Numbered from the stretch's first letter, positions 5,427 through 30,199 are shown. The stretch is 30,199 bases of DNA from a virus (IMGVR_UViG_3300027859_000002); one strand, 5' to 3'. Notes: a model not told the origin generated them from the letters alone. Made by a program: numbers and translations.

Positions 5427-5623
5427 TGTTTTTTAAAAAGAAATGCGCAAATCAAGCGTGTGACAATAAACACAAGATGACCCTCGACCCCGATGAACAT
5501 TGGTGCAATGGATGCTATAACAAACGAGTCAATAAGCAGGAACGCCACCTCCGAGGACTAAGGAGAGAACAGGAACTTGTCGCTAAATATTGGAAGGCTC
5601 CAACGTGGGTTCCAGAGACATGA
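5426..5623 (+). CDS. Zinc-ribbon protein (65 aa), equivalent to the N-terminal domain of lambda NinG.
   Basis: It has CANQAC...(14)...CNGC followed by a basic linker. Compare lambda NinG RRCKNDEC...WWCSPEC followed by a K/R/E-rich linker. Confidence 0.55.
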   Translation: MFFKKKCANQACDNKHKMTLDPDEHWCNGCYNKRVNKQERHLRGLRREQELVAKYWKAPTWVPET

Positions 5624-6033
5624 GGGGCAGGAAGGGACCACAGAATTTAGAAAAGAAAACGGTTCCCCAACTCCAAAACACCTTATGGCCTATTTTCGCT
5701 AACTACATCAAAGCAGTTTATGGTTCAGAGTGCTTTACTTGTGGAAAACGATGCGAGGGTAGGGACAGACAAGCCGGACACTTCATTCCCCGGACGTACT
5801 CTCCAGTTAAATACGATGAGGACAATGTCAGAACTCAATGTAGTGCGTGTAATGAGTACCACCATGGAAAGCCTGTCGAATTCGAGAGAAAGCTAAGACT
5901 TCAAATAGGAGACGAGGCAGTCGAACATCTCAAACAAGAATCCACTAAGTCGTGGAAGTGGGAAAGACAGTGGTTGATCGATAAGATTCTTTACTATCGA
6001 CAAGCCTTAAAGGAAAGGGAGGAAGCTGCATGA
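5620..6033 (+). CDS. ninG: NinG/Rap-like structure-specific endonuclease, C-terminal catalytic domain.
   Basis: CFTCG...QAGHFIPR...VKYDEDNVRTQCSACNEYHHGKP parallels lambda NinG CISCG...DAGHY...[21 protein letters not shown]. I chose the ATG at 5620 because it overlaps the upstream stop (ATGA). The ORF-track start at 5590 is a TTG. Confidence 0.65.
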   Translation: MRGRKGPQNLEKKTVPQLQNTLWPIFANYIKAVYGSECFTCGKRCEGRDRQAGHFIPRTYSPVKYDEDNVRTQCSACNEYHHGKPVEFERKLRLQIGDEAVEHLKQESTKSWKWERQWLIDKILYYRQALKEREEAA

Positions 6034-6410
6034 GTCTACTTACTTCACTGATTGCGCCAGTTGCTAACATTGCTACTGGGATTATAAAAAACAGAGGCGA
6101 GATTTCCAAAGCGAAACACGAAGCTAAAATGTCGCAGATTCAGAATGACGCAGATTGGGAATCTAAGATGGCCGATGCTTCTGCTAATTCGTGGAAAGAC
6201 GAGTGGTTTACAATTTTGCTTTCCATACCCTTACTAGCGGTCGGTGCTGGCGTTGTGATGGACGATCCCCTTATCATTGACCGAGTAAAGTCAGGCTTTC
6301 AAGCTCTCGAAGAGTTGCCAGATTGGTACAGCTATCTTTTATTCCTAGCAGTCTCCGCATCTTTTGGAGTGAAAGGCGTTGATAAACTTATGAACTTGAG
6401 AAAGAAATGA
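6030..6410 (+). CDS. Holin, resembling the GTA-type 3-TM holin family.
   Basis: It has an amphipathic N-terminus, the motif SWKDEW immediately before the TM segment FTILLSIPLLAVGAGVVM, and a second TM segment WYSYLLFLAVSASFGV. It is two genes upstream of the endolysin and has ATGA overlaps on both sides. Confidence 0.55.
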   Translation: MSLLTSLIAPVANIATGIIKNRGEISKAKHEAKMSQIQNDADWESKMADASANSWKDEWFTILLSIPLLAVGAGVVMDDPLIIDRVKSGFQALEELPDWYSYLLFLAVSASFGVKGVDKLMNLRKK

Positions 6411-6745
6411 ACAAAGAACTAGAGCCGGGAAGTGAATACAACAAGTACGATACTGACGGAGATGGCGTAGTAACAGACGCAGAGCTTGCCACTACTGAAA
6501 AACTCCAAGCCTTAGAGCTAAAAAACGAACGAGCAACGCAGCAAGCGTCTATGGCATGGTTTGGTCTATACGGCATGGTGGGTTATCCGGTGCTGGTAAT
6601 TGCGTCTCAGTATTTTAATTTAACTCAGGCTGCATCGATTCTTGGGGACATGGCGGCTGTGTATTTCGTCAGTACCGCAGGAATCGTCGGGGCATTCTTC
6701 GCGTCAGAATCGTTTAAGGCAAAAAACGGAAACGGTAAGCAATAA
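6407..6745 (+). CDS. EF-hand (DTDGDGVVTDAEL) protein with two C-terminal TM helices. Lysis-cassette component of unknown role.
   Basis: Residues 15-27 satisfy every position of the canonical EF-hand loop pattern. Two hydrophobic helices follow (MAWFGLYGMVGYPVLVIASQYF and AVYFVSTAGIVGAFFAS). The gene lies between the holin and the endolysin. Confidence 0.6.
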   Translation: MNKELEPGSEYNKYDTDGDGVVTDAELATTEKLQALELKNERATQQASMAWFGLYGMVGYPVLVIASQYFNLTQAASILGDMAAVYFVSTAGIVGAFFASESFKAKNGNGKQ

Positions 6746-6810
6746 TGGAAATACTGATCGCAGTTGGTTTTATTGTTGGTTATGTATTAGGGAAACACTA
6801 TGGGCGTTAA
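6745..6810 (+). CDS. Possible 21-aa single-TM micro-ORF.
   Basis: Hand-translated: MEILIAVGFIVGYVLGKHYGR. It has a TAATG overlap with the upstream gene and overlaps the endolysin start by 11 nt. There is no other support. Confidence 0.2.
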   Translation: MEILIAVGFIVGYVLGKHYGR

Positions 6811-7288
6811 CCTAGACCAGTTATACGAAGAGATTAAATCAGACGAGGGACTTGTCACAAACGACGAGGGCGAGTCTCTGATCTATAGGTGTACAGAGGG
6901 CTATCTGACTTGCGGCATTGGTCATAAGATCGTGGAGGGAGATGCAGAATATGGATTTGTTGAAGGCGATACAGTCCCAATGGACTCAGTTAAGCAACAT
7001 TTTGAGAAAGACGTTCAAACAGCTATTGAGGACTGTCGAGCGATTTATGGAGACGGATTTGATTCGTGGAGTGAGGAACGCTGCCATATCGTCACTAACA
7101 TGGCTTTTCAACTTGGTAGAAAAGGGCTATCTAGCTTTAAAAAGTTTAATGCGTACTTTCAAGAAGGAGCTTATGGCGGTGCGTCCTTGGAAATGATGGA
7201 TAGCAAATGGGCTTTACATCAAACACCAAATCGGGCCAAAAGATTGAGTAAACGAGTCCTAGCCTTAGCCAATGACCCTCGCGGATAA
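6800..7288 (+). CDS. GH24 (T4-lysozyme-like) endolysin.
   Basis: SDEGL...IYRCTEGYLTCGIGH aligns with T4 lysozyme [23 protein letters not shown]. There is no N-terminal signal or SAR helix. Confidence 0.85.
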   Translation: MGVNLDQLYEEIKSDEGLVTNDEGESLIYRCTEGYLTCGIGHKIVEGDAEYGFVEGDTVPMDSVKQHFEKDVQTAIEDCRAIYGDGFDSWSEERCHIVTNMAFQLGRKGLSSFKKFNAYFQEGAYGGASLEMMDSKWALHQTPNRAKRLSKRVLALANDPRG

Positions 7289-7682
7289 AGCAGACAAGTT
7301 AATAGAATTATGGGTGAGGGAACTGGCGCAAGAATCAGCCAACCCTTACAAGGCTCAGAGTCTCCTCGATGGACACTTTGCCTTAGAGGTGGGAGGAAAA
7401 AAAAATCCCTTGAAGTCATACATCAACGCAAAGGAAACGAAGTCCCCACCGAGGGATGTTATCAGTAGTGATTTAATTTTGATTGACTCGATTATCGGGC
7501 AGATTAGTAAGGTAAACAGTAAGTACCCTCTAGTCTTGAAGTGGTTTTATAGTACCGGGGACATGAAGCGAGTAGCGAAAGAGGCAAGCGTTAGCCTCAC
7601 TAAAGCAAGAGAACTAAAGAATACTGCATTTGATTTGGTGCAAGTTTTATTAGATGAAAAATTAGGAAAAAACTATGGTTAA
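7272..7682 (+). CDS. Q-type antiterminator-like late regulator (or sigma region-4-like HTH protein).
   Basis: It has LIELWVRELAQ near the N-terminus, then D(L)ILIDSIIGQISK...YPLVLKWFYSTGDMKRVAKEASVSLTKARELKNTAFDLVQVLL. This matches my recalled pattern for the Phage_antitermQ family: W..W, D.al.iD..v..L, ...Y..g.s.r.iA...g.s...v...l..a...v.g.L. Confidence 0.45.
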   Translation: MTLADKADKLIELWVRELAQESANPYKAQSLLDGHFALEVGGKKNPLKSYINAKETKSPPRDVISSDLILIDSIIGQISKVNSKYPLVLKWFYSTGDMKRVAKEASVSLTKARELKNTAFDLVQVLLDEKLGKNYG

Positions 7683-7782
7683 AAAGTTATGGGAAAAGAT
7701 TAAAAAATTGTTAGGCTTGACCCCGGAGGTTGAACCCCCAAAAGCCAAGCCCGGAAAAGGAAAAAAGAACAAGGGCAGATAA
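7675..7782 (+). CDS. Cationic amphipathic micro-protein (35 aa): candidate outer-membrane disruptor (disruptin-like).
   Basis: Hand-translated: MVKKLWEKIKKLLGLTPEVEPPKAKPGKGKKNKGR. AGGA lies 7 nt upstream of the ATG. Hand count: 12 K/R against 3 E. Hydrophobic residues fall at positions 2, 5, 6, 9, 12, 13 and 15, which is an i/i+3/i+4 amphipathic helix pattern. Confidence 0.4.
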   Translation: MVKKLWEKIKKLLGLTPEVEPPKAKPGKGKKNKGR

Positions 7783-7979
7783 AACCCTTTGCAAGACGTT
7801 TTTTATGATGTAAGGTATGGAAAGGTGCGACTGCTGACTCTTTCCCCCTTGAGGGAGTCTCAGCGTACCGGTGCATGAATCACCTTTTCATTGATGACAT
7901 GATAGGGGTTGGACCGAGCCGTAGCTTTGGGAGATAGTAGTAAAAGTTCTTCCTTCCCCTTGATTGTTTCGAGAATCCC
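7783..7979 (+). promoter_or_regulatory. Non-coding leader upstream of the late operon, containing a candidate late promoter and weak hairpins.
   Basis: No ORF longer than about 20 codons is present on the plus strand. Candidate promoter: TTGCAA (7789-7794)-N16-TAAGGT (7811-7816). Weak hairpin with a T-run: GGTG-catgaat-CACC-TTTT (7870-7888). The region lies directly downstream of the Q-like gene. Confidence 0.25.
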
Positions 7980-8114
7980 ATGACAAAACGAGTCGAAAGA
8001 AAACTCAAAAAAATAGCGAAGTCTCTGAACAAGGCAAGCAGGACTCATAAGGGCCAAGCCAGAGAGATCAACAAGATCGTTAAGAAAAAAGCCAAGGCAA
8101 GGCGCAGGAAATGA
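7980..8114 (+). CDS. Highly basic micro-protein (44 aa), the first ORF of the late operon.
   Basis: Hand-translated: MTKRVERKLKKIAKSLNKASRTHKGQAREINKIVKKKAKARRRK. Hand count: 20 K/R against 2 E. Its stop overlaps the next ATG (ATGA). The RBS is weak. Confidence 0.4.
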   Translation: MTKRVERKLKKIAKSLNKASRTHKGQAREINKIVKKKAKARRRK

Positions 8115-8449
8115 GTAGACGCATCCTTATTGACCCTCATAGGAATAGCTCACAAAACCGGAGCTACGGACAGAACGTAACTACTGAGATGCTGTATAAA
8201 GTAGACTTCAGTAACGCAGCCTCAGACCAGAGTACATCAGTCTCAGGCGTTACGGCCGAAAGCAAAGGCAGACAAGGGCTTACTCTTACAACTCCCTCAG
8301 TCAGTAGTAACGTGGCTAGTTTCTACGCAAGCTCGGCTCATTCCGGGGATGGGGTGATAAAAGTGACTGCGACTTATGCCAATGGAAAGAAAGACGCCAG
8401 CTTTATCAAAGTAAAGGTAAACAACCCAACAGACCACAGACACTTCTGA
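8111..8449 (+). CDS. Hypothetical protein (112 aa), Ser/Thr-rich and likely beta-rich.
   Basis: ORF track. It is translationally coupled on both sides, and I recognised no motif. Confidence 0.55.
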   Translation: MSRRILIDPHRNSSQNRSYGQNVTTEMLYKVDFSNAASDQSTSVSGVTAESKGRQGLTLTTPSVSSNVASFYASSAHSGDGVIKVTATYANGKKDASFIKVKVNNPTDHRHF

Positions 8450-8637
8450 TGACAGAAGAACTCAAGGGCAGAATTGAGATACTGGAACAGCAGCGAAACG
8501 ATGCGATGAACCAATGCGTTTTGTTAGGCGGCCAGATCAAACAGATGATTGAACAGATTGAAGCATTGAAGAAGTTAAAGGACTCAGAAGATGGCAATGA
8601 CGAGAGCGCAGACGAATCGGAAGATCAGACAGGATAG
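8449..8637 (+). CDS. Small coiled-coil protein with an acidic tail (62 aa).
   Basis: ORF track. It has a TGATG overlap, a heptad-like stretch (IEILEQQRNDAMNQ...IEQIEALKKLK) and the tail DSEDGNDESADESEDQTG. Confidence 0.5.
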   Translation: MTEELKGRIEILEQQRNDAMNQCVLLGGQIKQMIEQIEALKKLKDSEDGNDESADESEDQTG

Positions 8638-8887
8638 TCTGCGAGAACAACTTGCTAACCAGAAGCACATTGAGCAAGTCGTTGAGTCTATTAAAAAATT
8701 AGAGGAGCTGGACACTGAAATGGACAGTGTTGCAGTAAGTCGGATCAAAGGAGCCATCGACAGCAGGATCAAGCTCGTAAGTAAGTATTTACCCGACCTC
8801 AAGAGCATTGAGCTTTCCGGGGACGAAGATTACCCAGTTCAGATCGCAGCCTATGAAATCCAATTCAGTGATCAGCCTGAAACGTAG
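8591..8887 (+). CDS. terS: Probable small terminase subunit (98 aa).
   Basis: It lies immediately upstream of TerL and overlaps it. Its size and the C-terminal motif IDSRIKLVSKYLPDLKSIELSGD resemble small terminases of T7-like podoviruses (..LL.K.LPDLK..E..). Confidence 0.4.
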   Translation: MAMTRAQTNRKIRQDSLREQLANQKHIEQVVESIKKLEELDTEMDSVAVSRIKGAIDSRIKLVSKYLPDLKSIELSGDEDYPVQIAAYEIQFSDQPET

Positions 8888-10118
8888 GGTTCCAACCGCA
8901 TTCAAAGAACTGTACGAGCCTCACAGGATTAAATGTTATTGGGGAGGTCGAGGAGCCGGGAAATCGGTACAGATGGCTTCAGCCCTTTTACTAAAGGGAA
9001 CGGAAACCCCGAAAAGAATTCTATGCGCCAGAGAGATTCAGAGATCAATCAAGGATTCTGTTCACTCTCTCCTGGCATCGAGGATCGAAGCGTTAGGACT
9101 GGAAAGGTTCTACGAGGTAACTCAGAACGAGATTCGTGGAGTAAACGGCACGACGTTTATATTCACTGGACTCCTTGCGAATATCCAGTCGATCAAGAGC
9201 ATAGACAACATTGACCTTTGTTGGGTGGAGGAGGCGAGCTCGGTCAGTGAGAACTCTTGGAGGACTTTGATACCTTCAATACGAAAGCCCGGATCCGAGA
9301 TTTGGGTGAGCTTTAATCCAGAGCATAAGACAGACGCAGCGTACCAGAGATTTGTTTTGTATCCACCACAAAACGCAATGGTCAAGAAAGTCAGCTACCG
9401 GGACAATCCTTACTTTAGTCAAACGACATTGCCCGAAGAGATGCAAATCCTCAAAGATCAGAACGAGGAAGAATATCTCCATGTATATGAGGGCGAGCTA
9501 AAGCAATTCGTTGACGGATCGATTTATAGAAATCAACTTCAGCAAGCCAGAGACGAGGGCAGGATTTGTTGGTTCCCTGTCGAAAGCTTAGAAGTGCATA
9601 CATTTTTCGATCTCGGTCGTAACGATTCGACTGCAATATGGTTCATGCAAGCAGTCGGAAAAGAGTTTAGATTCATTGATTACTATGAACATAGGTTAGT
9701 GGATTTAGATCACTACGCTCATGTACTCAAGGAAAAAGGCTATCTCTACGGAACGCACTACCTACCTCACGATGTTGAGGTGATCTCGCTTGGAAGTAAC
9801 AACCGAAGCAGGAGAGACATCTTGGAAGGTTTAGGAGTGCATCCGATTACAACTGTTCCAAGGATAGCAAGCGTTGAAGACGGTATAGCGATGGTGCGAG
9901 ATAAATTTAAAGCTTGCTGGTTCCATGAGGAAAACTGCGAAGAAGGTTTAGAAGCTCTCTCAAACTATCAGTACCAGTTCGATGAGAAACATGACACATA
10001 CAGAAAAGTTCCTTTGCACAATGCAGCAAGCAATGGGGCTGACGCCTTCAGGATGTTTGCACAAGCATTTGAAGAAGATACTTACATTCAAGAACTCGAC
10101 TTTGCGAGTGAGTGGTAA
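8853..10118 (+). CDS. terL: Terminase large subunit (Terminase_3/PBSX-like).
   Basis: It has the Walker A motif YWGGRGAGKS, then LCWVEEAS (Walker B-like) and a C-terminal nuclease region (FFDLGRND..., HYLPHD, NGADAFR). The ORF-track start at 8808 is a TTG. I prefer the ATG at 8853 (MKSNSVISLKRRV...), but the start remains uncertain. Confidence 0.85.
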   Translation: MKSNSVISLKRRVPTAFKELYEPHRIKCYWGGRGAGKSVQMASALLLKGTETPKRILCAREIQRSIKDSVHSLLASRIEALGLERFYEVTQNEIRGVNGTTFIFTGLLANIQSIKSIDNIDLCWVEEASSVSENSWRTLIPSIRKPGSEIWVSFNPEHKTDAAYQRFVLYPPQNAMVKKVSYRDNPYFSQTTLPEEMQILKDQNEEEYLHVYEGELKQFVDGSIYRNQLQQARDEGRICWFPVESLEVHTFFDLGRNDSTAIWFMQAVGKEFRFIDYYEHRLVDLDHYAHVLKEKGYLYGTHYLPHDVEVISLGSNNRSRRDILEGLGVHPITTVPRIASVEDGIAMVRDKFKACWFHEENCEEGLEALSNYQYQFDEKHDTYRKVPLHNAASNGADAFRMFAQAFEEDTYIQELDFASEW

Positions 10119-12275: not shown

Positions 12276-12566
12276 ATGGCAAAAAAAGATCCCAGACTTA
12301 CTAGGGCAGGAGTCACAGGATTCAACAAACCTAAGCGAACACCTAACCATCCGAAGAAGTCTCACATTGTCGTAGCAAAGCAAGGTGACAAGATCAAAAC
12401 AATTCGATTCGGACAACAAGGAGCCTCAACTGCTGGCGCACCGAAGAAAGGCGAAAGCCAAGCCACAAAGAACAGACGCAAATCTTTCAAAGCAAGACAC
12501 GCAAAGAACATAGCAAAGGGCAAGATGTCAGCAGCATTTTGGTCGGATAAGGAGAAATGGTCGTGA
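12276..12566 (+). CDS. Conserved Lys-rich small protein (96 aa).
   Basis: NKPKRTPNHPKKSHIVVAKQGDKIKTIRFGQQG...RRKSFKARHAKNIAKGKMSAAFWSDKEKW resembles a family I recall as widespread in aquatic phages and giant viruses (...KSF.ARH... motif). Its function is unknown. Confidence 0.65.
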   Translation: MAKKDPRLTRAGVTGFNKPKRTPNHPKKSHIVVAKQGDKIKTIRFGQQGASTAGAPKKGESQATKNRRKSFKARHAKNIAKGKMSAAFWSDKEKWS

Positions 12567-12715
12567 GCCTCTATAAAAACATTCATAAAAAACGCAAGCG
12601 CATAAAAGCAGGATCAAAAGAAAAAATGAGAAAGCCGGGAACTCCGGGCGCACCAACTGCCGCAGCTTTCCGTAAAGCAAAGAAAACCGCAAAGAAACCT
12701 AAATACGACAAATAA
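12563..12715 (+). CDS. Lys-rich micro-protein (50 aa).
   Basis: Hand-translated from a GTG that overlaps the upstream TGA (GTGA): (M)SLYKNIHKKRKRIKAGSKEKMRKPGTPGAPTAAAFRKAKKTAKKPKYDK. The NIH.KRKRI.AGS.E.MRKPG..GAP motif looks conserved. Confidence 0.5.
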   Translation: MSLYKNIHKKRKRIKAGSKEKMRKPGTPGAPTAAAFRKAKKTAKKPKYDK

Positions 12716-12725
12716 GGAAATCATT

Positions 12726-12839
12726 ATGCCAATGGTAAAAGGTAAGAAGTTCCCTTACACGAAAGAAGGAATGGCCGCAGCAGCAACGGCTAAAAAGAAA
12801 AAAAAGAAAGCTAAAAAGAAAGGTGGATACGACAAATGA
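12726..12839 (+). CDS. Lys-rich micro-protein (37 aa).
   Basis: Hand-translated: MPMVKGKKFPYTKEGMAAAATAKKKKKKAKKKGGYDK. Its stop overlaps the next ATG (ATGA), and it shares the C-terminal YDK with the preceding ORF. Confidence 0.45.
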   Translation: MPMVKGKKFPYTKEGMAAAATAKKKKKKAKKKGGYDK

Positions 12840-28782: not shown

Positions 28783-30199
28783 TGGCTACTTTACTTGAAG
28801 AAATACGATCTCGAAAAAAGTCAGATAACTCTCAATCTCAAGAATCTGAAATTCCAACTTTAGAGGAATTTGCCCCAACTAGAACTTTGTTAGATGAAGT
28901 TAGAAATCAACAGCCAGATATTGCAAAAGGAAGAAGGCAATTATTTAGATCAATTACGCCTCAAGCAGTTGATGATTTTGTTGACAGATTTCCATCTGAA
29001 ACACCTTTAGACGAATTGTTTAAAGACGTACCGGGAGGGTTAGAAGGAGCGAGAGGCGTGGCAGATGTTGTGCTTTCAGGTGCAACCTCAGTTATTCCTG
29101 CGATTGGTAATGTGGTCGGGACAGTTGAAGGATTTGGAAAAGCTCTATCAGATGGCAGTTTTGGAACACAAGAAGGCGCAAGAGACATTCAAAGAACCGC
29201 AGAGCAAAGGGCTGAAGCGTTTGGTCGTAACCGATTGATTCCTTTTTATGAGCCTTCCTCAGAGGCAGGAAGACAATTACAACAAAATTTAGGTAGATTT
29301 GCTGGAAGATATTTACCTCCAATTTTATCTGGTGGCCCTAGTCAGTTTCTTACTGGCAGACAACCAACAATTACGAAAAAAGAGGAAACTGCAAATAGAA
29401 TTAGATCAGGAGATGAAAGCGCAGAACTTGCTAAAACTAGAATTCCAGATCCCGAAGGTTTTACTAAAGATAAAACAATAGAAAAAGACAGAGAAGCTAT
29501 TGAAACAATAAAACAGGGGCTTGATGAATCTACCGTTCAAATGCTTAAACAGGCGTCTATTGCTGACAAAGAAAGAATGTTAGAAATGCTTAATTTAAGA
29601 TCAAAGGGATTAACTAACAAAAGAGACGAGCAATTAAACAGAGCGCACGATATACCCGGAACAGCACTTTTAAACAATATTAAAAAGTTAAAAATTGCAA
29701 AAACTAAAGCAGGACAAGACGTTGATAAAGAAGCCAACACTTTAAGAGGCGTTTCTATAGATGGCGATCAAGAAATTTTAAATATTGGCAGAAGATTTAT
29801 AAATGATCTTTCAGAACGATTAAACATAAAATTTGATGAAAACTTAAACCCAATTTTTGAAGGCACAACAAGGATTGAAAAAAATCCAACTTCTATGAAA
29901 TTAGTCAAAGACATTTTTGACCTTGCTAAAAATCCGAAAGACGCTAAAGGGTTGCATGATCTCAAACAAGCAGTAAACGAAAAACTTAATTATGATAAAG
30001 CGCAGCCGGGAGGAATTGCCGGGAACACAGAGCAAGTGATTAAAGATTTCAATCGAGATATTAATAATTATTTAAGAAACAAAAGCGACAGTTACGCTAA
30101 AGCAAACGACAACTTTAGTATTCTTGCAGACGCAATAGACAGCATTGAATCTGTTACAGGCAAAAAAACTGATTTTGACTCAATCACAACTGGAAAACA
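28782..30199 (+). CDS. Large late protein, 5' part. It wraps through the contig junction and continues to 530, giving 606 aa on the circular map. Probable internal virion or ejection protein.
   Basis: The ATG at 28782 overlaps the upstream TAA (TAATG). The frame stays open to the window end, so the ORF is missing from the ORF track. Because 30073 equals position 1, the frame continues at position 3 and stops at TAA 528-530 (1,821 nt in total). The gene is AT-rich and I recognised no motif. It is the last of three large ORFs after the tail genes. Confidence 0.7.
   Translation, partial: MATLLEEIRSRKKSDNSQSQESEIPTLEEFAPTRTLLDEVRNQQPDIAKGRRQLFRSITPQAVDDFVDRFPSETPLDELFKDVPGGLEGARGVADVVLSGATSVIPAIGNVVGTVEGFGKALSDGSFGTQEGARDIQRTAEQRAEAFGRNRLIPFYEPSSEAGRQLQQNLGRFAGRYLPPILSGGPSQFLTGRQPTITKKEETANRIRSGDESAELAKTRIPDPEGFTKDKTIEKDREAIETIKQGLDESTVQMLKQASIADKERMLEMLNLRSKGLTNKRDEQLNRAHDIPGTALLNNIKKLKIAKTKAGQDVDKEANTLRGVSIDGDQEILNIGRRFINDLSERLNIKFDENLNPIFEGTTRIEKNPTSMKLVKDIFDLAKNPKDAKGLHDLKQAVNEKLNYDKAQPGGIAGNTEQVIKDFNRDINNYLRNKSDSYAKANDNFSILADAIDSIESVTGKKTDFDSITTGK
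30073..30199. repeat. Terminal overlap, copy 2 (identical to 1-127).
   Basis: Same observation as copy 1. A length of exactly 127 nt is typical of a de Bruijn assembler k-mer overlap on a circular contig. Confidence 0.95.

Follow-up and report, generated by a model that had tools for sequence, protein, structure and literature searches.

The genome of an uncultured marine podophage contains, as the last cistron of a rightward operon that carries its lysis genes, a 35-codon micro-gene that is kept throughout its closest relatives and is very probably a genuine, translated gene, to judge from its pattern of substitutions. The encoded peptide begins with a predicted amphipathic helix (residues 2-12/15), ends in a disordered tail rich in Pro and Lys, and has a net charge of +9. 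The genome encodes no recognisable spanin. The best explanation as a whole, a disruptin-like last cistron in a spanin-less phage, is put forward tentatively and is to be regarded as doubtful.

The stretch of DNA analysed, hereafter the window, is 30,199 nucleotides long. Its first 127 bases are identical to its last 127, forming an exact direct repeat, and the window is therefore a complete circular genome of ~30.07 kb. Both ends of the window are joined in the contigs of relatives, and the ORF left open at the 3' end runs on into the ORF left open at the 5' end. The genes include those for a portal and coat of the P22 type and for a Terminase_3 large subunit, and the phage is a complete marine P22-like podophage of an uncultured lineage. 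The nearest cultured portals share ~35% identity and belong to Vibrio, Shewanella, Thalassomonas, Xylella, and enterobacterial phages. The nearest large terminase (TerL) genes in bacterial genomes share ~50% identity and are found in a Pseudomonadota MAG and a Cellvibrionaceae contig. Because these portal and TerL relatives come from Gammaproteobacteria and other Pseudomonadota, an outer membrane probably must be breached. A Gram-positive host, named in the original prediction as a finding that would speak against it, is not indicated by these phages and prophages, and the uncultured host is likely to be a diderm member of the Pseudomonadota. A blastn search with positions 5500-9000 against 50,697 phage records returned no match; by such comparisons, no cultured relative of the phage has been sequenced. 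Neither Rfam families nor tRNAs were found when the window was scanned.

Two groups of relatives were compared. Clade A comprises ~21 distinct marine viral contigs, retrieved via neighbouring proteins, in which the Q-like protein encoded directly upstream of the micro-gene is 95-99% identical. Clade B comprises sister phages in which the Q-like protein is 52-69% identical. Table 1 lists the features of the window that are discussed.

Table 1. Features of the window relevant to the micro-gene and its surroundings
Feature	Position	Strand	Basis or remark
NinG-like gene	5590-6033	+	First gene listed in the plus-strand string
126-aa GTA_holin_3TM-type membrane protein, probable holin	6030-6410	+	phrog_2524 match, TM segments
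112-aa protein with EF-hand-like loop and C-terminal TM segments (second holin or antiholin-like)	6407-6745	+	
21-codon ORF with a single hydrophobic (TM) segment	6746-6811	+	Overlaps endolysin start by 12 nt
T4-lysozyme-type endolysin	6800-7288	+	Pfam PF00959, PHROG
136-aa helical protein with C-terminal sigma-region-4/Q21-like HTH (Q-like)	7272-7682	+	AF2, Foldseek
Shine-Dalgarno AGGA	7664-7667	+	7 nt before micro-gene ATG; within last codons of the upstream 136-aa gene
35-codon micro-gene	7675-7782	+	ORF reading, conservation, AF2 helix, public gene catalogues
Conserved untranslated leader, ~200 nt	7783-7979	+	Alignment and consensus fold of 10 relatives
44-aa ORF, +18, helical	7980-8114	+	First ORF after leader, just upstream of packaging/structural genes
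52-aa ORF, +17	12557-12715		phrog_16028 match
37-aa ORF, +12	12726-12839		
127-bp terminal direct repeat	30073-30199 (identical to 1-127)	.	Circular assembly, ~30,072 bp genome

The plus-strand genes form an uninterrupted string that runs from the NinG-like gene through the holin-like, EF-hand/TM, 21-aa, lysozyme, and 136-aa genes to the micro-gene. In some relatives the 126-aa holin-like protein is replaced by an alternative allele, assigned to PF11351 by precomputed annotation. The 112-aa EF-hand/TM protein is conserved in both clades, and the 21-aa TM ORF is found by tblastn at 68-95% identity in many clade-A relatives. The endolysin scores 20 bits against PF00959, below the cut-off of 22.3, and matches PHROG endolysin and tail-lysozyme families at 1e-8 to 1e-11.

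The 136-aa protein was predicted by AlphaFold2 (AF2) with a pLDDT of 74 overall. Its C-terminal four-helix part (residues 66-131) exceeds 90, and residues 24-63 are of low confidence. The top Foldseek match is the phage 21 Q protein complex (6jnx_P, probability 0.96, E 0.19, TMq 0.53), and sigma region 4 domains come next; the matches are weak, with E of at least 0.19 and TMq of 0.4-0.53 across the top ones. FliA is also matched weakly. A profile scan of genome contigs with the Q-like alignment found no relative. On the basis of the model, the 136-aa protein would be a Q21-like regulator, and the start of the micro-gene would be translationally coupled to the stop of the regulator gene. The micro-gene is thus the last cistron of a rightward nin-lysis-regulator operon, in which it is not adjacent to the endolysin gene. 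Its placement at the end of a lysis cassette, as first proposed, holds insofar as the operon carries the lysis genes, but the Q21-like regulator gene lies between it and the endolysin gene.

A consensus promoter/terminator scan found no plus-strand terminator after the micro-gene. The untranslated leader begins there. It contains a -35/-10-like box, placed just past the end of the micro-gene, and a hairpin (alignment columns 51-96) that is strongly conserved. Its place beside the 44-aa ORF and the packaging/structural genes is constant, both in relatives with a cassette behind the micro-gene and in those lacking one. The leader has no Rfam match and may, from its conservation and position, be a candidate late promoter and Q-utilisation region.

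The micro-gene starts with an ATG at 7675 and ends with a TAA at 7780-7782, and its start overlaps the stop of the 136-aa gene by 8 nt. This layout of 35 codons, AGGA, a 7-nt spacer, and an overlap with the upstream stop had been predicted, as had a net charge of about +9, and both are confirmed by reading the sequence: the peptide contains 12 Lys/Arg and 3 Glu residues. It has no TM segment, signal peptide, cysteine, or hydrophobic segment. With 35 residues and a charge of +9, it falls within the range set for disruptins (fewer than 80 residues, a charge of at least +4, and no export signal). Composition alone does not set the peptide apart: a six-frame reading of the window yields 262 ORFs of 25-60 aa, and 12 of them carry a charge of at least +9.

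The N-terminal part of the peptide is predicted to be helical. AF2, run on a 16-variant alignment, places a helix at residues 2-12 with a pLDDT of ~84, and the tail is of low confidence and non-helical. An Eisenberg hydrophobic moment of 0.61 was calculated for residues 2-15, with 0.79 for the best 11-mer; when residues 2-15 are shuffled, only 2.7% of the permutations attain the observed moment. The amphipathic helix was initially assigned to residues 2-15; the AF2 helix is shorter and ends at residue 12. In the model, Trp and Leu/Ile would line one face of the helix and Lys the other, constituting a short, interfacial, amphipathic element.

Conservation distinguishes the micro-gene from other short ORFs. 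Size and charge by themselves are not unusual, and it is because the ORF is conserved that it stands above chance. The ORF is intact in all ~21 clade-A contigs, with the ATG and AGGA kept throughout. There are 16 distinct DNA versions in clade A, encoding 34, 35, or 38 residues. A 3-nt in-frame indel lies at codon 3, and all indels are multiples of three. Variable sites are distributed 7/9/19 over the first, second, and third codon positions, and eleven codons vary only synonymously. Over codons 4-26, pS is 0.34 and the in-frame pN/pS is 0.08, while the other two forward frames give 0.87 and 2.7; for the upstream 136-aa gene, pN/pS is 0.03. The minimum number of changes over the same codons is 15 synonymous and 5 non-synonymous, where 23% would be expected to be synonymous (p=1e-6). 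An interrupted or unconserved ORF in close relatives had been named as contrary evidence, and the opposite is observed: the frame is uninterrupted in every clade-A relative and its substitutions are of the coding type. Public gene catalogues, including that of Tara Oceans, list the peptide on more than 200 contigs.

The variants also preserve the character of the peptide. Residues on the hydrophobic face are either invariant or change only from Leu to Trp, and every variant has a net charge of +8 to +13. Two unrelated C-terminal tail alleles exist, one with and one without a downstream antisense cassette, and both are rich in Lys/Arg. This pattern suggests selection for a cationic tail, yet A/G-rich DNA favours Lys and Arg codons anyway.

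Two other readings of the same DNA were considered and rejected. An antisense ORF at 7662-7772 is not a real gene, since it contains a stop in one relative (L010) and its start is not conserved. An A_AAA_AAC heptamer lies at 7667-7673 in the zero frame of the Q-like gene, and a -1 slip there would enter the micro-gene frame and fuse the two products. In about half of the relatives' upstream variants the heptamer is broken by AAG at the Lys codon, and it is probably fortuitous.

A marine metatranscriptome yielded a 441-nt relative contig that corresponds to 7558-8001 and contains the whole micro-gene as the allele with the in-frame 3-nt deletion. The contig comes from a single-run RNA library that possibly contains DNA, and its presence there does not establish transcription.

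Roughly 13-15% of the phages with Gram-negative hosts lack spanins. The complete genome was scanned for lipoboxes in strict and relaxed form, from every start codon in all six frames, and for TM segments. No o-, u-, or i-spanin-like ORF was found on the transcribed strands. The lipobox matches arose at internal starts within long genes or in frames that begin with TTG and run antisense to long genes. In the TM scan, no ORF of the genome had both a TM segment at its N-terminus and a long soluble domain or coiled coil. The lack of recognisable spanins, noted at first for the lysis cassette and its neighbours with the proviso that one might lie elsewhere, extends to the whole phage because the genome is complete. 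The micro-peptide would share with the spanins, either two-component (Rz/Rz1) or unimolecular (T1 gp11), the last step of Gram-negative lysis as its hypothesised role. It contains no lipobox, cysteine, TM segment, or periplasm-spanning domain, and therefore cannot itself be a spanin.

The disruptin of phage phiKT, gp28, is a small, signal-less, cationic protein with a predicted amphipathic helix from a spanin-less phage (Holt et al., bioRxiv 10.1101/515445). For comparison, its sequence was translated from the phiKT record (JN882298, 37102-37272). The two share these general properties. In addition, both genes are co-directional with holin and endolysin and overlap the upstream stop by 8 nt, but this stop is that of the endolysin in phiKT and that of the regulator gene here. 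The proteins themselves differ in most respects. The micro-peptide is shorter (35 versus 56 aa), slightly more charged (+9 versus +7), and much more hydrophilic (29% versus 43% hydrophobic residues), and has four prolines where gp28 has none. A hydrophobic central stretch is present only in gp28, which is mostly helical, whereas the micro-peptide would form one 11-14-residue helix with a disordered Pro/Lys tail. BLASTP gave no alignment between the two at E<=100. The resemblance, as far as sequences tell, is one of class (small, cationic, amphipathic, from a spanin-less phage) and not of family, which agrees with the wording of the original prediction, a much shorter and unrelated-looking analogue.

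The peptide would also resemble linear helical cationic antimicrobial peptides such as LL-37, cecropins, and mastoparan in its short Lys/Leu/Trp amphipathic helix, high moment, and strong positive charge. It differs from them in that it is made inside the target cell and has a long non-helical Pro/Lys tail, and a PDB sequence search detected no homology.

Searches for relatives of the peptide were uniformly negative. A profile search of 1.84 billion representative proteins returned only its own 50% cluster, and tblastn against the 50,697 phage records gave no match. Pfam, PHROGs, and PADLOC had nothing for the micro-gene. A PDB sequence search gave chance-level matches only (E>=0.3), and Protein Atlas only a 0.76 feature match to an unnamed cluster. 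The micro-peptide thus appears as an orphan of one narrow clade.

One small-protein family of marine podophages (P0049-P0082) invites comparison. It occupies the same slot after the Q-like gene in some sister phages (L038-40, L049) and, like the micro-peptide, has a Trp-containing amphipathic N-terminus and many charged residues. The family is defined by a conserved C-terminal motif, Arg-Asp-Ala-Lys-Gly-Arg-Phe ... Asn-Glu-Ala-Tyr, that is missing from the micro-peptide. Homology between the two was rejected: hhalign gives a probability of 1.4%, and the motif is absent from all six frames of the window. In another abundant marine podophage (L051:3582-5851, L052, and L053), a 73-aa member of the family is encoded between a TerS-like protein (140 aa) and an SNase, with TerL next. 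The family lies away from lysis genes there and travels with SNase and packaging genes.

The region directly after the micro-gene is subject to turnover. Most clade-A relatives carry there a leftward cassette of 0.1-1.3 kb, whose 3' end overlaps the last codons of the micro-gene and so gives rise to the two unrelated tail alleles. The insertion point corresponds to ~7772-7783 of the window; examples are L001:4489-5436, L016:4486-5780, and L020:1925-2875. The cassette is absent from the window, L007, and L011. Its first gene is a 54-aa RHH-like one; small helical proteins and a Cys-rich protein of 145-200 aa are also encoded, an HTH gene occurs in some cases, and the right end bears an operator-like palindromic repeat that is duplicated.

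None of the clade-B sister phages examined has a micro-gene. The slot after their Q-like gene is occupied by an SNase gene in L041-47 (SNase-like in L044), with or without a signal peptide; by genes for a 33-aa TM peptide and a 79-aa protein of the small-protein family just described in L038-40; by a gene for a 50-aa relative of the 79-aa protein in L049; and by unrelated ORFs in L022 and L024. Since the sister phages differ in this way, the slot behaves as a site of accessory-gene swapping. No spanin occupies it in any sister phage, and evidence for a swap against a spanin is hence absent.

Clade B contains a different candidate for the outer-membrane step. Directly after NinG, in the position taken in clade A by the GTA-type holin (window 6030-6410), a gene for a 64-78-aa lipobox lipoprotein overlaps one for a signal-less, cytoplasmic class-3 lipase (PF01764). 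The EF-hand/TM protein and the lysozyme follow the pair, as seen in L039:1176-1947, L041:2373-3132, and L048:564-1371. By analogy, the pair might let a Gram-negative phage deal with the outer membrane by means of a lipase, in the manner of LysB. The micro-gene in clade A and the lipoprotein-lipase pair in clade B are mutually exclusive in the sample. This complementary distribution was not counted as support for an outer-membrane role, being essentially a single phylogenetic contrast in which one phage, L044, has neither.

The micro-gene is not the only small basic ORF of the genome. At least three others are highly basic (Table 1). The 44-aa ORF that follows the leader combines its charge with a very high hydrophobic moment; it keeps its full 44 aa in every clade-A relative, is missing from clade B, and is a rival small cationic candidate. 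The 52-aa and 37-aa ORFs sit between the portal region and genes for a 149-aa and a 596-aa protein. In 91 genomes without spanins, the authors of the phiKT study found 528 small cationic candidates (10.1101/515445), from which a low base rate follows for any one candidate disruptin. They also expect disruptins in other spanin-less phages of Gram-negative hosts (10.1101/515445). According to a 2026 paper, disruptins are diverse and hard to predict, and the outer-membrane step in spanin-less phages is still an open question (PMC12819732).

Several alternatives to a disruptin have to be weighed. The swapping of genes in the slot of the sister phages (SNase, the 33-aa TM peptide with the 79-aa protein, or the 50-aa protein), the insertion of cassettes directly behind the micro-gene in most clade-A relatives, and the orphan status of the peptide would all suit an accessory, moron-type gene unrelated to lysis, encoding a small host-interference or anti-defence peptide at the recombination-prone boundary between the early-right and late operons. 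Such a gene is unlikely here, as every clade-A genome keeps it despite heavy turnover alongside, its nearest functional neighbours are lysis genes, and PADLOC, Pfam, and PHROGs contain no match. A further alternative is an untranslated ORF, or a young gene that has no function, in which the apparent constraint is imposed by the antisense frame or by a DNA/RNA element that overlaps it. Wobble positions are common to the micro-gene and the antisense frame, which also looks constrained (pN/pS 0.15); the ORF is short, and A-rich sequence yields in-frame Lys by composition alone. This is nonetheless very unlikely: the forward frame has the lowest pN/pS, a conserved ATG, and a conserved AGGA, indels are multiples of three, and the antisense frame has no conserved start and is stopped in L010.

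The peptide might instead act within the cell. In one scenario its helix docks on the inner face of the inner membrane and tunes holin triggering or endolysin release, in an antiholin- or Lcc6-like manner and not as an outer-membrane disruptor. Having no export signal, the peptide would be cytoplasmic before triggering, and the two holin-like proteins and the 21-aa TM ORF of the cassette suggest layered control; work on Shewanella LambdaSo shows that the holin step can depend on additional small factors (10.1101/2024.01.23.576932). The known antiholins and Lcc6 are transmembrane proteins, though, whereas the micro-peptide has no TM segment, and the micro-gene does not co-vary with the holin, occurring with both GTA-holin alleles. 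These points make an inner-membrane modulator distinctly improbable. Comparably improbable is a nucleic-acid or regulator-associated factor, whose Lys/Pro tail would bind DNA or RNA or which would act with the Q21-like protein at the late promoter or leader. The tail presumably resembles basic, proline-spaced nucleic-acid-binding tails, the stop-start overlap with the regulator gene implies co-expression, and the conserved leader with its promoter-like box begins just past the micro-gene stop. On the other hand, both the Q-like gene and the leader are present in the sister phages, which lack the micro-peptide, and the conserved part of the peptide is an amphipathic helix, atypical for nucleic-acid binding.

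Returning to the disruptin reading, the peptide would build up in the cytoplasm beside the endolysin and the holin-like proteins. Its polycationic tail would bind polyanionic lipid surfaces, such as LPS or anionic phospholipid, and its helix would wedge into the membrane interface. Once the holin has triggered and the murein has been degraded, the envelope, most plausibly the outer membrane, would thereby be destabilised. The peptide would then be an analogue of the phiKT disruptin that is shorter, more hydrophilic, and unrelated to it in sequence. In keeping with the original prediction, the gene is conserved, the genome is spanin-less, and the host is likely diderm. The reading is weakened because the peptide is an orphan of a narrow clade, a regulator gene separates it from the endolysin gene, the slot is one of gene swapping, gp28 is unlike it, and other basic ORFs are present. 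A lysis-linked, membrane-active role of any kind is a reasonable possibility that nevertheless falls on the doubtful side, and a spanin-replacing role at the outer membrane specifically is somewhat unlikely.

To our knowledge, only one disruptin has been tested experimentally so far. The present case is a modest addition, whose value lies in a complete, small, spanin-less genome from a lineage that is abundant across the ocean and found on hundreds of metagenome contigs, and in a short list of conserved candidate peptides that are cheap to synthesise. It is rather unlikely that an abundant, spanin-less P22-like marine lineage completes lysis with a 34-38-residue peptide unrelated to gp28, a second and structurally different type of outer-membrane disruptor in which one interfacial amphipathic helix is joined to a polycationic Pro/Lys tail, while its sister clade B uses a lipoprotein and a class-3 lipase. 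If the disruptin reading is untrue, attention would shift to the remaining basic micro-proteins or to the lysis components proper, the endolysin and the holin-like proteins. If it is true, the micro-peptide would represent a second, unrelated type of disruptin and a new minimal membrane-active scaffold.
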